From Methanocaldococcus sp. 16A (GTDB lineage: Archaea > AGJL01 > Methanococci > Methanococcales > Methanocaldococcaceae), in assembly GCA_049860595.1 (NCBI GenBank), contig CP187551.1: a DNA stretch of 64,000 nucleotides, one strand, 5' to 3'. The first letter of the stretch is position 1. Each line of letters starts with the position of its first letter. The notes below the pieces were generated by a model. That model saw only the letters and a program-made list of their open reading frames with translations. It was not told the DNA's origin and did no database searches. Below, in pieces: positions 6,405 to 60,515 of this stretch. A program made the translations under genes and the position numbers.

Positions 6405-6440
6405 AGTTTCACCTATATAGTAGGAAATATTAAACAAATT

Positions 6441-6479
6441 GGGGTGTATCCCAATAGAGGGGCAAAGCCCCTCTATGAT
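6441..6479 (+). repeat. hairpin module B (GGTGTATCCCAATAGAGGGGC-AAA-GCCCCTCTAT)
   Basis: Perfect 10-bp stem at 6454-6476; related copies near 39457, 54971 and 59784. Confidence 0.75.
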
Positions 6480-39493: not shown

Positions 39494-39503
39494 AGTGGAG
39501 ATA

Positions 39504-39527
39504 ATGCTAAATCCAATAATTTTATTT
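39504..39527 (+). other. orphan duplicate of the cobD 5' end (MLNPIILF)
   Basis: ATGCTAAATCCAATAATTTTATTT vs ATGTTAAATCCGATAATTCTATTT at 39587; 3 differences, all synonymous. Confidence 0.85.
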
Positions 39528-39555
39528 GAACCTTTTAAAAAAAGGTTCATCAAAA
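39527..39555 (-). repeat. palindrome module A
   Basis: Reverse complement TTTTGATGAACCTTTTTTTAAAAGGTTCA matches 59900-59928 except one compensatory pair. Confidence 0.85.
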
Positions 39556-39586
39556 TCACCTTAGATAGTTTTATAAGTGTGAAATT

Positions 39587-40510
39587 ATGTTAAATCCGAT
39601 AATTCTATTTTTAACTGTTATCTTTGATAGAATTATTGGAGAACTGCCAGAGAAAATTCATCCAACGGTTTGGATAGGGAATTTAATAGCTTTTTTAGAG
39701 AATATATTTAAATCTACAAATTGTAAAAATATATATAGAGATTTTTTATTTGGCATCTTAACTACAACTATAACAATAGGAGTTGTAGGAATTATATCAA
39801 TTTTTTTAGAAAAATTTATCTTATTATTGCCATTTCCTTTAAATTATCTTATCTATGCCTTTGTTTTATCAACAACCATTGGATACAAATCATTATTTGA
39901 GTTCTGCAGAAAGCCAATTGAATATATTAAAAATAAAGATATAGAGAAAGCGAGGGAAGCTGTTCAACACATTGTTAGCAGAGATGCATCAAAATTGGAT
40001 GAAGAGCATATACTATCAGCAGCAGTAGAGAGTTTGTCTGAAAACATAACTGATAGCATAATAGGGGCTTTATTCTATGCTATTATTTTTGGATTGCCTG
40101 GAGCTTTTGTATATAGAGCAATAAATACCTTAGATGCAATGATTGGCTATAAAAATGAAAAATATTTATGGTATGGAAAATTAGCAGCAAGATTAGATGA
40201 TATTGTCAATTTTATTCCATCAAGGATAGCGGGGATTTTGCTAATTATTGCTTCCCCATTTTATAAAGGAAATATCAAGAGAGCAATATATGGATTTTTA
40301 GAGGAAGCTAATAGAGTACCTTCACCAAATTCTGGATATACAATGGCTACATTAGCAAATGCTTTAAATATAACATTAGAAAAGATTGGATATTATAAAC
40401 TTGGTAGTGGAAAGATAGATGTTAAAAAATCTTTAAATGCATTTAAGGCCGTTGATTGTGTAGTAATTATATTTTTAATAATTTACAGTTTAATCTGGTG
40501 GGTATTATGA
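39587..40510 (+). CDS. cobD: adenosylcobinamide-phosphate synthase CbiB/CobD
   Basis: GE..HPTVWIG, VSRD, ESLSEN..D, YRAINTLDAMIGY, SPNSG. Confidence 0.93.
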   Translation: MLNPIILFLTVIFDRIIGELPEKIHPTVWIGNLIAFLENIFKSTNCKNIYRDFLFGILTTTITIGVVGIISIFLEKFILLLPFPLNYLIYAFVLSTTIGYKSLFEFCRKPIEYIKNKDIEKAREAVQHIVSRDASKLDEEHILSAAVESLSENITDSIIGALFYAIIFGLPGAFVYRAINTLDAMIGYKNEKYLWYGKLAARLDDIVNFIPSRIAGILLIIASPFYKGNIKRAIYGFLEEANRVPSPNSGYTMATLANALNITLEKIGYYKLGSGKIDVKKSLNAFKAVDCVVIIFLIIYSLIWWVL

Positions 40511-41938: not shown

Positions 41939-43120
41939 CAACAACAAACCTGAAAATATTGCTAAGAAACTTCCATATAAAAATGTTATTTCTGGATTTA
42001 TTTTCCATAGATAACCAGCTATCAAACTTGCAGGTAAGCTCGTTAATCCTACTACAGTATAAAACAGCCCCAAAGCTGTAGCTCTAATATCTTCTGACGA
42101 TAAATCAGATACATAAGCTTTCTGATTTCCAGCAAATGAGGCATAGGCAATTCCATATAAAGCAAACAACAATATTAAGCTTTTTTGAGACATAAAGTAA
42201 GCAAATCCTAAAGAAGTAATTCCATAAAGTATATATCCTAACGTTAAAACACTTTTTCTTCCAATTTTGTCTGATAAAATTCCAAATGGGATTGAAAATG
42301 TGGCATAAAAGATGTTATATAAAATATAAAGAGCTATAGGAATTACAATAGCCATCTTCTCATCCACTATCATTAAAAATTCTTGAGCTCTTAAAATATA
42401 AAACATATAGCTAAAATTACTTAAAGTAAATATGGCTGAGATTAGAATAAATAGCTTTAACTCTTTTGACAAGTTTTTAATTCCAACTCTAAATGTTATT
42501 TTGTTATTATTATTGGAAACTATCTTTTTTTCTTTAACAAAGTATAAAGGAATTACAGCGAGAAATCCAATAACTGCTGCTATTAAAATTATCTGATTAA
42601 ATTTATACTGGAAAAATAATATACACAATAGCGAAATAGTAGAGCCCAATATAGCTCCTGCAGTATCAAAAGCTCTCTGTATTCCAAAACCTTTACCCAA
42701 AGTTTTAGGCATACTTTCAGATATTATTGCATCTCTTGGGGCAGTTCTTATTCCTTTTCCCATTCTTTCAAGGGATGAAAATATAATTGCCGATAACCAG
42801 CTTTTTGATAAACCTAATAGCAGTTTAAACATTGAAGATGTTAAGTAACCTAAAATGACAAATATCTTTCTTTTTCTTACTTTATCTGAATAATAACCAA
42901 TTAAAACCATCAAAATATTTGAGATAAATTCCCTCAGACCTCCAACTAAACCAATTGATAAACTTCCCCCTCCAAAACTTGTAATAAGCATTGGCAAAAT
43001 TGGCATTATCATCTCACTACTCATATCATTCAAAAAGCTTGTAAATCCTAATAAATAGACATTTTTAGATAATTCCTTATTATTCTTTTGTAAATTTTGT
43101 TTTTCCACATTTCTCACCAT
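41921..43120 (-). CDS. MFS transporter
   Basis: DMSSEM, ERMGKGIRTAPRDA, GILSDKIGRK. Confidence 0.92.
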   Translation of the reverse strand: MVRNVEKQNLQKNNKELSKNVYLLGFTSFLNDMSSEMIMPILPMLITSFGGGSLSIGLVGGLREFISNILMVLIGYYSDKVRKRKIFVILGYLTSSMFKLLLGLSKSWLSAIIFSSLERMGKGIRTAPRDAIISESMPKTLGKGFGIQRAFDTAGAILGSTISLLCILFFQYKFNQIILIAAVIGFLAVIPLYFVKEKKIVSNNNNKITFRVGIKNLSKELKLFILISAIFTLSNFSYMFYILRAQEFLMIVDEKMAIVIPIALYILYNIFYATFSIPFGILSDKIGRKSVLTLGYILYGITSLGFAYFMSQKSLILLFALYGIAYASFAGNQKAYVSDLSSEDIRATALGLFYTVVGLTSLPASLIAGYLWKINPEITFLYGSFLAIFSGLLLLFLKT

Positions 43121-58990: not shown

Positions 58991-59755
58991 ATGGAAAAAA
59001 AGGTTATAATAGTTGGAGCAGGTCCAGGGGACCCAGAGTTAATAACAATCAAAGGTAAAAAGGCAATAGAAGAGGCAGATGTTATTATTTATGCTGGCTC
59101 GTTAGTTAATGAAAAGCTTTTAGAATATAACAAAAAAAATGCTGAAATTTACAACAGTGCAAATATGGATTTAGAAGAAATTGTTAATGTAATGGTTAAA
59201 GCAGTTGAACAAGGAAAAAAAGTTGTTAGATTGCACACAGGAGACCCATCTATTTATGGAGCTATAAAGGAGCAGATTGATGAATTAGCAAAACATGGAA
59301 TAGATGTTGAAATAATTCCAGGAGTTAGTTCTTTATTTGCAGCAACTGCATCATTGAAGGTTGAACTAACTCTTCCAGAAGTCTCTCAGACAGTTATTAT
59401 TACAAGACCTGAAGGAAGAACCCCAATGCCAGAAAAAGAAAAGCTTAGAGATTTGGCTAAGCACCAATCAACAATGGCTATTTTTTTAGGAGTTTCAATG
59501 ATTGATAAAGTTGTTAAAGAACTAATTGAGGGAGGTTATAAAGAAGAAACTCCTGTAGCTGTTGTATATCACGCCTCATGGGATGATGAGAAAATTGTTA
59601 AAGGAACTTTAAAAGATATTGCTGAAAAGGTAAAAAAAGAGGGGATTAAAAAAACTGCCTTAATAATTGTTGGAGAAGTTTTAAATCCTAAGCATTATGC
59701 ATATTCAAAACTTTACGATAAAGAATTTGAGCATGGATACAGAAAGAAAAAATAA
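58991..59755 (+). CDS. cbiF: cobalt-precorrin-4 C11-methyltransferase
   Basis: VGAGPGDPELIT, YAGSLV, RLHTGDPSIYGA, SQTVIITR, SKLYD.F.HGYR. Confidence 0.94.
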   Translation: MEKKVIIVGAGPGDPELITIKGKKAIEEADVIIYAGSLVNEKLLEYNKKNAEIYNSANMDLEEIVNVMVKAVEQGKKVVRLHTGDPSIYGAIKEQIDELAKHGIDVEIIPGVSSLFAATASLKVELTLPEVSQTVIITRPEGRTPMPEKEKLRDLAKHQSTMAIFLGVSMIDKVVKELIEGGYKEETPVAVVYHASWDDEKIVKGTLKDIAEKVKKEGIKKTALIIVGEVLNPKHYAYSKLYDKEFEHGYRKKK

Positions 59756-59929
59756 TTTTGATGATGAAACTTTTTTTAAAAGCATAGAAGGAAACCCTCT
59801 ATTGCTATACACCACGTCCATTAAGTTGCCCCTAAAAGGGGCAATTAATGTCCAATATTATTGTGAGGCATTTCCGAGCGTAGCGAGGCAATGCATCCGT
59901 TTTGATGAAACTTTTTTTAAAAGTTTCAT
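59756..59929. repeat. composite hairpin cassette (partial module A, module B reversed, hairpins C and D, module A)
   Basis: TGATGAAACTTTTTTTAAAAG occurs twice; ATAGAAGG-AAA-CCCTCTAT; TTGCCCCT-AAA-AGGGGCAA; GCATTTCC-GAGCGTAGCGA-GGCAATGC. Confidence 0.85.
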
Positions 59930-59932
59930 TTA

Positions 59933-59980
59933 AAGCTCTACAACAAAGAGTTTGAGCATGGCTATAGAAAAAAGAAATGA
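59933..59980 (+). other. orphan duplicate of the cbiF 3' end (KLYNKEFEHGYRKKK*)
   Basis: 14/15 aa identical to 59708-59755 with 10 nt differences in 48. Confidence 0.9.
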
Positions 59981-60193
59981 CTACTTATTTTTTCTCTCTT
60001 CTATTTTTTCAAGCAATATTTTTAAATCAGTTTTTTTAGTTATGTTGGTTTCTTTTTCTAAGAGCTCTTTAACTTTTTGTTCAAGCTCTTCTAAGCTTTC
60101 AACACTTTCTAAAAGCCCTTTAATAAACTCCATATTCGCCATATAAGGCAAAGCATCAAGCATCAACAATTTAATCTCTTCTTTTTGGCTCAT
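59981..60193 (-). CDS. small hypothetical protein
   Basis: 70 aa helical, charged ORF overlapping the DUF2304 gene end. Confidence 0.7.
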   Translation of the reverse strand: MSQKEEIKLLMLDALPYMANMEFIKGLLESVESLEELEQKVKELLEKETNITKKTDLKILLEKIEERKNK

Positions 60194-60515
60194 ATCTATC
60201 CCTTATAGCAATTTCTCTAACTATATGGGTTATCTGCCTCTCTAAGGCATCAATCTTAGCATACAACCTATAAATTAAGTAGAATAGAAGTACAATTGAT
60301 ATATACATGAGAGCATCTACTCCTCTTCCAACCCCTAAAATATTAGCTACATATCCAAAGAATTCTGGAAATATTAAGAATACAACAACAGAACTCCAAA
60401 CAAAAATCCAGAATAAACCTTCATTTAGTGTCATACTTCTCTTTTTTAACTGTAATATAACCCTTGACAATGCAAACAATGCAAATGCAATCCCAACTAT
60501 CTGAATCAATCCCAT
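60171..60515 (-). CDS. DUF2304 membrane protein
   Basis: LFW..W, LGVGRGVD..Y, IT.IVREIAI. Confidence 0.88.
   Translation of the reverse strand: MGLIQIVGIAFALFALSRVILQLKKRSMTLNEGLFWIFVWSSVVVFLIFPEFFGYVANILGVGRGVDALMYISIVLLFYLIYRLYAKIDALERQITHIVREIAIRDRYEPKRRD

Follow-up and report, generated by a model that had tools for sequence, protein, structure and literature searches.

Duplicated gene ends around a hairpin-repeat cassette at cbiF and at other gene boundaries in Methanocaldococcus

Small palindromic repeats (REP, BIME, MJRE, RPE) are common and, to our knowledge, the route by which most of them insert has yet to be established. In Methanocaldococcus jannaschii, the palindromic repetitive elements MJRE1-3 were described by Suyama, Lathe and Bork in FEBS Lett in 2005. 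MJRE elements are reported to be small and multi-copy, with palindromic sequences that fold into hairpins; most lie outside genes and some are read in frame as part of a gene. The cassettes analyzed here resemble them in these respects as well as in genus. As far as we know, and judging from a citing text, the MJRE work reports no long target duplications, no anchoring at stop codons, no fixed polarity and no detached gene ends ("orphans") that look like alleles. The present cassette family, with its many dispersed copies and palindromic hairpin units, probably belongs, judging by description, to the MJRE class. Gene-end duplications around Methanocaldococcus repeats were not found described in the literature searched; the text and supplements of the 2005 MJRE work may bear on this novelty.

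Other known systems share parts of the picture. Bacterial REP/BIME elements, which RAYT (Y1 HUH) transposases mobilize, also form mosaic clusters of hairpin modules just 3' of genes, with compensatory stems and no protein of their own. Unlike the situation in those bacteria, the genome studied here (G000) lacks a Y1 gene, and no RAYT flanked by its own REP hairpins was found in 17 genomes; nor do we know of REP insertion duplicating 17-95 nt of target. MITEs and transposons that leave target-site duplications resemble the cassettes as short non-autonomous repeats with direct repeats of the target as flanks and with nested insertions. However, their duplications are short and of fixed length, whereas those around the cassettes measure 17-95 nt, roughly a five-fold range; furthermore, the cassette unit has no defining terminal inverted repeats and no evident transposase (Y1 and TnpB-like genes were searched for). 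Integrative elements that restore the end of the gene they enter, such as the lambdoid phage 21 and e14 in icd, SXT in prfC and the tRNA islands, likewise yield a gene end twice, one in frame and one displaced, with mostly synonymous differences between them. In contrast to the cassettes, which are 30-290 nt long, protein-less and found at many targets, these elements span kilobases, carry an integrase and use a single target. Variable and possibly long target duplications are also produced by target-primed retroposition of SINEs and LINEs and by unprocessed flaps or template switching. The cassettes share with these processes the variable long duplication and hints of microhomology at the junctions, but differ from SINE/LINE products in that G000 has no reverse transcriptase and the inserts carry no poly-A-like tail.

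The site at the end of cbiF described below exemplifies an insertion signature that occurs throughout the genus and has apparently not been described before, although the repeat itself is of a known kind. The signature can be counted: anchoring at a gene boundary, fixed orientation relative to the gene, a long and variable target duplication, and later nested insertions. It does not fit fixed-stagger transposases, Y1 "peel and paste" transposition or integrases and the mechanism should therefore be testable in genetically tractable Methanococcales.

The cbiF site and its cassette

The window, that is, the whole 64,000-nt stretch of DNA analyzed, corresponds to G000:C1:160001-224000, in a genome of 1.62 Mb with 30% G+C in three contigs. 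The features at the cbiF site are the following.

58991-59755, plus strand: cbiF (precorrin-4 C11-methyltransferase), intact 254-aa ORF (TIGR01465, PF00590)
59703-59755, plus strand: copy A, the in-frame last 16-17 cbiF codons and TAA, left copy of the putative target duplication (repeat search, alignment)
59756-59932, plus strand: cassette of hairpin repeat modules, multi-copy in the genome (177 nt; 21 BLAST pieces in G000)
59762-59782, plus strand: left copy of an exact 21-nt internal direct repeat, TGATGAAACTTTTTTTAAAAG, equal to the left half of hairpin d (repeat search)
59781-59806, plus strand: hairpin h, of the CATAGAAGG...CCCTCTATTGCTATAC type (fold)
59819-59850, plus strand: hairpin b, CATTAAGTTGCCCCT AAA AGGGGCAATTAATG (fold)
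59865-59897, plus strand: hairpin c, GAGGCA...GAGCGTAGCGAG...TGCATCC, its loop containing a GCGNAGC-type mini-hairpin (fold)
59905-59929, plus strand: hairpin d, GATGAAACTTTTTTTAAAAGTTTCAT, the right end of the cassette, always abutting the orphan copy (fold, flank listing)
59928-59980, plus strand: copy B, the orphan cbiF end LKLYNKEFEHGYRKKK-TGA, continuous with the native downstream flank (repeat search, alignment)
59981-60193, minus strand: convergent 70-aa ORF without a Pfam family, its stop abutting copy B

The cbiF ORF scores 400.5 bits against TIGR01465 cobM_cbiF (cut-off 259.65), the profile spanning residues 5-251. The last 48 nt of copy A (59708-59755) code for KLYDKEFEHGYRKKK-TAA, the in-frame end of the gene; the corresponding part of copy B (59933-59980) codes for KLYNKEFEHGYRKKK-TGA, and no ORF leads into it. 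Of the 48 nt, 10 differ between the copies, with eight changes at third codon positions, one at a first position (in a GAT/AAC codon that is changed at its first and third positions) and one at the second position of the stop (TAA/TGA). Re-reading and alignment confirmed the two ends as given in the first-pass annotation, with their coordinates, codons and number of differences. The repeat begins 5 nt further upstream (59703-59753 and 59928-59978, 41/51 identical), the extension adding one difference, TCA/TTA (Ser/Leu). From the stop of A to the first codon of B, the spacer measures 177 nt (59756-59932) instead of the 175 bp initially assigned to the cassette. As had also been noticed, copy B abuts the stop of the convergent gene: its TGA (59978-59980) directly touches the CTA at 59981-59983 that terminates the 70-aa ORF. 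In the cassette-free genomes G001, G012 and G016, the convergent ORF abuts the single cbiF end or lies at most about 16 nt from it. Local alignment of the two flanks of the cbiF cassette gives a score of 31; at 600 places picked at random in the genome, with gap sizes matched, the median was 10, the 95th percentile 15 and the 99th percentile 23.5.

Two further ORFs in this region were considered spurious: a 78-aa frame running through the cassette (59697-59933) consists of repeat modules, and a 64-aa frame over copy B (59952-60146) is antisense to the convergent gene. The possibility that the cassette is an intron or is bypassed during translation was dropped because copy A already ends in a stop codon and is followed by a second in-frame stop (TAA TTT TGA).

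Folded as single-stranded DNA, the 177-nt cassette forms four main hairpins with a minimum free energy of -30.5 kcal/mol (z = -6.1), and 0 of 200 shuffled sequences were as stable. Parts of it recur at about 20 places in G000, module h for example at G000:C1:627653-627857 and 1397391-1397681. The 21-nt internal direct repeat is exact in its two copies (59762-59782 and 59903-59923), and we read it as the duplication probably made when modules h, b and c were nested into an older d hairpin. A scan of positions 59500-60300 against Rfam 15 (E <= 10) returned eight weak matches, none at gathering score (the best had E 0.22 and 21 bits, against a gathering score of 70); these are chance-level only and identity of the cassette with a known RNA was ruled out. 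Scanning for sigma-70 promoters and terminators gave nothing useful, the consensus patterns being bacterial and the host archaeal.

Comparison with relatives places the cbiF structure in time. The site is filled in G000 and G011, in G015 (c+d), in G007 and G010 (d alone) and in G008 (a remnant); it is empty in G012, G016 and G001, and a different neighbor lies downstream of cbiF in G006, G004 and G014. The in-frame cbiF copy runs into the element in G007 and G010, while in G011 the cassette is present and the orphan is mostly deleted. Occurrence of the same layout in independent assemblies of relatives (G015, G007, G010 and G011) shows that it is no assembly artefact. Furthermore, the left junction of the orphan (hairpin d / TCA...) falls at the identical base in G000, G015, G007 and G010 and this, together with the cassette in G011, makes the structure older than the strain. 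The simplest history would be that d inserted once, long ago, and that the cassette then grew by nesting.

A genus-wide family of insertions at gene boundaries

Iterated BLAST with seven seed cassettes delimited 32 family intervals in G000, together 3.25 kb, and 47 in its sister G011, whose whole-genome identity to G000 has a median of 95.5% (605/790 sampled 400-nt windows) with a long low tail. The typical unit is made of two hairpins, c or e on the left and d or f on the right; c+f units have the ends AAGAGGC...CCCTATGG, and the family alignment shows stems kept by compensatory changes. Inserts range from 26 to 291 nt, contain no ORF of the element, and occupy at least 14 different targets in G000.

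Flank repeats with a score of at least 17 (the random-position 95th percentile being 15) were found around 14/32 cassettes in G000, around 16/47 in G011 and around 33/63 distinct cassettes in other genomes of the genus. Thus the arrangement at cbiF, which the first-pass annotation had attributed to a single crossover, is instead the standard insertion signature of a repeat family. The duplications are imperfect direct repeats of about 17-95 nt across the genus; when hairpin d copies were printed with their flanks, nearly all showed an imperfect repeat of the neighboring gene end on both sides. The 3'-end targets include cbiF, smc, purB, a V-ATPase subunit D-like gene and a ferredoxin-like gene, among others. 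Gene 5' ends together with their ATG, intra-operon junctions and the 3' end of one tRNA, duplicated at G000:C1:627604-627892, are targets as well. A second example in the window affects a gene start.

39494-39610, minus strand: d-type hairpin between two copies of a gene start (g199_5; flank alignment)
39494-39527: orphan copy of the start
39526-39552, minus strand: d-type hairpin
39576-39610: functional copy of the start

Here the duplicated segment comprises the ATG and seven codons of the gene at 39587-40510, and all three differing codons are synonymous.

The cassettes have a marked polarity. The c/e side carries the intact gene, and d/f adjoins the orphan, in 19 of 20 informative cases (binomial p 4e-5; four cases scored as "both", one as "none" and two without orientation were set aside), and the ratio is about 15/16 when each pair of orthologous G000 and G011 loci counts as one. 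Since the rule holds at 3' and 5' ends alike, it is independent of the direction of transcription. Insertion points are also constrained: most of the 14 3'-end cases start 0-3 nt past the stop codon or supply the stop themselves, in which case it comes from the TAAGAGGC end of the cassette. In one 3'-end case the ORF runs into the c module; at g824 it does so for nine codons.

Origin and divergence of the two copies

Some duplications are perfect or nearly so. At G011:1494736-1494893, a 72-nt c+f unit is flanked by a perfect 42-43-nt duplication comprising the last 13 codons of the gene and its stop. G000 has no insert here, and two states absent from its empty allele are common to both G011 copies, a pattern that points to target duplication in situ. 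Near-perfect duplications of 50-68 nt exist elsewhere in the genus. These alignments point to the long duplication arising in situ at insertion, although perfect duplications could also reflect gene conversion between the copies instead of a recent insertion. The ferredoxin-like gene (g824) illustrates the latter: its insertion is common to most of the genus, yet the two copies in G001 are identical at 37/37 positions, so conversion between copies does occur and can mimic youth. No copy in G011 exceeds 90% identity to the seemingly recent insert at G011:1494736-1494893, the best candidate donor reaching 89.7%.

Insertion has taken place repeatedly at the same boundaries. Independent events with different junctions were identified at one gene start (G011 versus G001/G010) and at one gene end (G011/G012 versus G006). 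Some junctions show hints of microhomology to the target (TATGG or TTCAT). Profile searches of G000 gave 0 matches to PF01797 (Y1/HUH transposase) and 0 to PF00078 (reverse transcriptase). Among the 17 genomes, Y1_Tnp occurs in three (G011, G001 and, as a broken copy, G014), as ordinary IS605 tnpA-tnpB pairs; in G011, tnpA sits next to tnpB and no cassette modules were found near the locus. In G000, cassette modules were found neither within 1.5 kb of the three TnpB-like genes nor on the two small replicons. No link of the cassettes to TnpB, to IS605 or to either small replicon emerged. The variable length of the duplications, the microhomology hints and the GCGNAGC-type loops suggest that insertion may proceed by a single-strand, repair- or replication-based route.

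The differences between the copies are distributed as in coding alleles. In 15 gene-end pairs of G000, they fall 26/9/51 on codon positions 1/2/3 over 611 nt (43 synonymous and 27 non-synonymous codon differences), a distribution that departs from uniformity (chi-square p 1.7e-7) and from a rough 29/28/43 expectation for a constrained functional copy and a neutral orphan (p 6e-4), on stretches that are short. Orphans compared with orphans at four loci shared by G000 and G011 give 4/3/18 over 177 nt (p 2e-4), again on short stretches and with some of the loci underlying these statistics being orthologous between the two genomes. Their divergence is 14%, versus a genome median of 4.5%. In smc, the orphans of five species all keep a stop codon (TAA, TAA, TAG, TGA and TAA). 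Judging from these counts, point mutation in a dead copy does not produce the codon-like pattern, and in this respect the view taken in the first-pass annotation, that the A/B differences are unlike the decay of a dead copy, holds for the family as well.

Exchange between lineages is apparent at two other loci. Of the 13 genomes read at purB, four spread over the genus are filled (G000, G011, G004 and G014) and nine empty. Naturally, purB ends in one of two ways in the genus, "..NK*" or "..NKNY*-like", and either type comes with a characteristic 3' flank. The left copy of G000 and G011 ends in "..NK*" and continues into about 20 nt of the flank belonging to this type; their right copy is "..NKNY*" with its own flank. 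Hence, two haplotypes have been joined. In addition, a 25-nt stretch is swapped between left and right copies when G000 is compared with G011. At G011:664750, the filled block and the same new C-terminus are also present in G012, while no insert occurs in the sister genomes G000, G016 and G005; G011 and G012 agree at 92-100% within the block but at only about 88% in the DNA on either side. At 11 loci, one of G000 and G011 is filled and the other empty. Within single genomes, the two copies share lineage-specific states (cbiF of G010 and G015, g824 of G010 and G001). A prediction from lateral transfer, that non-synonymous differences should concentrate in the half of the orphan beside the cassette, failed: differences at positions 1+2 versus 3 number 8 versus 22 in the inner half and 16 versus 22 in the outer half (Fisher p 0.21, the trend being opposite).

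Accounts of the duplicated ends

On balance, we lean towards an explanation in which hairpin DNA inserts with a long target duplication made in situ and the filled blocks are subsequently exchanged by homologous recombination. The cassette would be a pile-up of small protein-less hairpin modules drawn from a multi-copy family. Modules would insert at a gene boundary, at 3' ends usually exactly at the stop codon, and insertion would bring the long and variable direct duplication of the target (about 17-95 nt) that is observed; as a result of the duplication, the gene remains whole on one fixed side and the spare end comes to lie beside a d or f hairpin. At cbiF, hairpin d would have come first, with a duplication of about 51 nt; h, b and c would then have been nested into d, leaving the 21-nt duplication. 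Our guess is that the first insertion involves a template switch during replication or repair, guided by microhomology, and not a classical transposase. Once in place, "copy - cassette - copy" blocks could pass from one lineage to another through homologous recombination, with the gene and the DNA around it as arms, as seen at purB and G011:664750 and as is likely for cbiF, for which no donor lineage was found among the sampled alleles; the two copies within one genome could also swap segments. With blocks and segments exchanged in this way, most differences between copies would be those between working alleles, and so synonymous, and not the product of decay. Orphans are eventually lost, as at cbiF in G011, and cassettes act as rearrangement breakpoints, as at smc in G011.

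A single recombination event that brought in a foreign cbiF 3' end together with the cassette, making A the incoming and B the resident copy, was the interpretation given in the first-pass annotation. Events of this type are known in the genus from purB and G011:664750, where the notion of juxtaposed alleles from different lineages, including the block shared by G011 and G012, stands. At cbiF, the nearly exclusively synonymous A/B differences would agree with it, as would the continuity of B with the native downstream flank found in cassette-free relatives. However, copy A is the clade-typical sequence, matching the in-frame ends of the cassette-bearing G011 and of the cassette-free G012 and G016 at 45/48 positions each, while B appears odd, its best match among sampled alleles being 39/46, a contrast between A and B that is not significant at such length. 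If anything, these matches run against B as the resident copy. The sharing of the orphan junction with G015, G007 and G010, and of the cassette with G011, speaks against a single event as well. Finally, identity between G000 and G011 starts at 98.3% in the first 519 nt of cbiF, drops to 94.9% in the 195 nt that precede A and to 92.6% in the two convergent genes, and reaches 96% further on; a 90-nt scan shows a broad lower tract at about 59510-60500 with no step at A. Recombination has touched the region to some extent, but we consider a single crossover in cbiF an unlikely source of the structure. In an alternative that dispenses with exchange altogether, the target site was simply duplicated and the orphan has since decayed neutrally, its differences looking synonymous by chance or through mutation bias. 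The perfect and near-perfect duplications are in line with it, and so are orphans with nonsense or non-synonymous changes (g288 and the g11 3' end each have a premature stop) and the orphan undergoing deletion at cbiF of G011. It appears rather improbable in the face of the second-position differences (9/86, versus about 24 expected), the 4/3/18 distribution between orphans of sister genomes at three times the genome-wide divergence, and the stop (TAA, TAG or TGA) kept in the smc orphans of five species.

Polyploidy and gene conversion are familiar features of these organisms, and the orphan could be kept by selection while the copies trade places, either by A-B excision and re-integration or by exchange among polyploid chromosome copies. 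The reciprocal swap of purB segments between G000 and G011, the lineage-specific states shared by copies within one genome and the alternation of empty and filled sites between the sister genomes would all be expected; imports from other lineages account for the same patterns, however, no excision product was seen, and we do not think such trading probable. Even less so is the idea that the cassettes are attL/attR scars of integrase-driven elements carrying a replacement gene end, as in icd prophages and prfC ICEs, which we regard as very improbable. That gene ends, gene starts and a tRNA 3' end (G000:C1:627604-627892) are all duplicated, with synonymous differences, would suit such scars. But a single genome has identical short modules beside at least 14 different targets, the inserts are protein-less and of 30-290 nt, the duplications vary in length, both copies can equal the local allele, and no larger element bounded by such copies was seen.

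Insertion with in situ duplication followed by block exchange can be extended to a bolder proposal, which we offer tentatively and with some doubt. Protein-less hairpin DNA might spread without a transposase of known type, by template switching or through an unrecognized enzyme, docking in a fixed orientation where genes begin or end (at start codons, stop codons or tRNA ends) and copying 17-95 nt so that the target gene is never killed; the spare ends would then act as landing pads and allele reservoirs for interspecies recombination, remaining coding-like without being expressed. For annotation and population genetics, it matters that orphan ends resemble working alleles, diverge between sister genomes three times as much as the genome average, and mark short patches of interspecies exchange as well as points of rearrangement. 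There is a risk of taking them for recoded genes, or for scars from the recombination of integrated elements.

Public read runs were also surveyed. None contained the stretch (best word share 0.06); contigs from four runs, retained at 85% likeness, come from relatives, and one form among them lacks the cassette, much like the empty G012 site.

Altered and duplicated gene ends at cassette insertions

Cassette insertions, which place protein-less hairpin repeat modules between a functional and an orphan (displaced, spare) copy of a gene end or start, were read at the following loci of the genome under study (G000), its sister genome G011 and a further genome of the genus, G012.

G000:C1:823820-824566, ferredoxin-like gene with a cassette insertion, and its orthologues (L195)
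G011:C1:664878-665975, also in G012, gene with a replaced C-terminus (L237)
G000:C1:627604-627892, two copies of a tRNA gene 3' end (CCCCGAGCCCACCA plus trailer) around a 210-nt cassette (L079)

The ferredoxin-like gene now ends within a c module (..CIRVKEALPSEAR, then stop), while its original end survives in the orphan and overlaps the start of the next gene (TAATG). The insertion is common to 10 of the 11 genomes read; the two copies are near-identical within each genome and undergo concerted evolution. At L237, in both G011 and G012, the resident C-terminus (..AKVVKENLK, stop) has been exchanged for the version carried by the insertion block (..AREIKNNL, stop). Cassette insertions can therefore alter protein tails. 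In the tRNA cassette, the left 103 nt are shared with the cbiF cassette at 95% identity.

A duplicated gene start

Window 39494-39610 (G000:C1:199494-199610), d-type hairpin, minus strand, between orphan and functional gene-start copies

The duplicated start comprises the ATG and seven codons, and all three codons that differ are synonymous. Since the native promoter side is retained by the orphan copy, transcription of gene 39587-40510 must pass through the hairpin.

Divergence and rearrangement between genomes

Window 6439-6477 (G000:C1:166439-166477), short cassette fragment
Window 59510-60500, tract of lowered identity; its two small genes, both convergent, are DUF2304 and a 70-aa ORF without family
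G011:C1:829396-832749, intact IS605-type pair, tnpA (143 aa) and tnpB (392 aa) (L254)
G011:C1:740443-740518 and G011:C1:1422258-1422298, separated smc pieces (L054, L067)

Identity between G000 and G011 falls to 88-96% over window 59510-60500, a tract that runs from the 3' part of cbiF through the cassette and across both small genes; on either side it is 97-100%. The short fragment has no significant flank duplication (score 13). The IS605-type pair is intact in G011 and G001, broken in G014, and absent from G000 and the remaining 13 of the searched genomes.

In G000 the end of smc adjoins its hairpin-plus-orphan copy, but in G011 the two are 680 kb apart; the genome was rearranged, with a breakpoint within the smc cassette.

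In G000, the cassettes at 42421 and 627648 likewise have flanks that match distant or inverted G011 positions.
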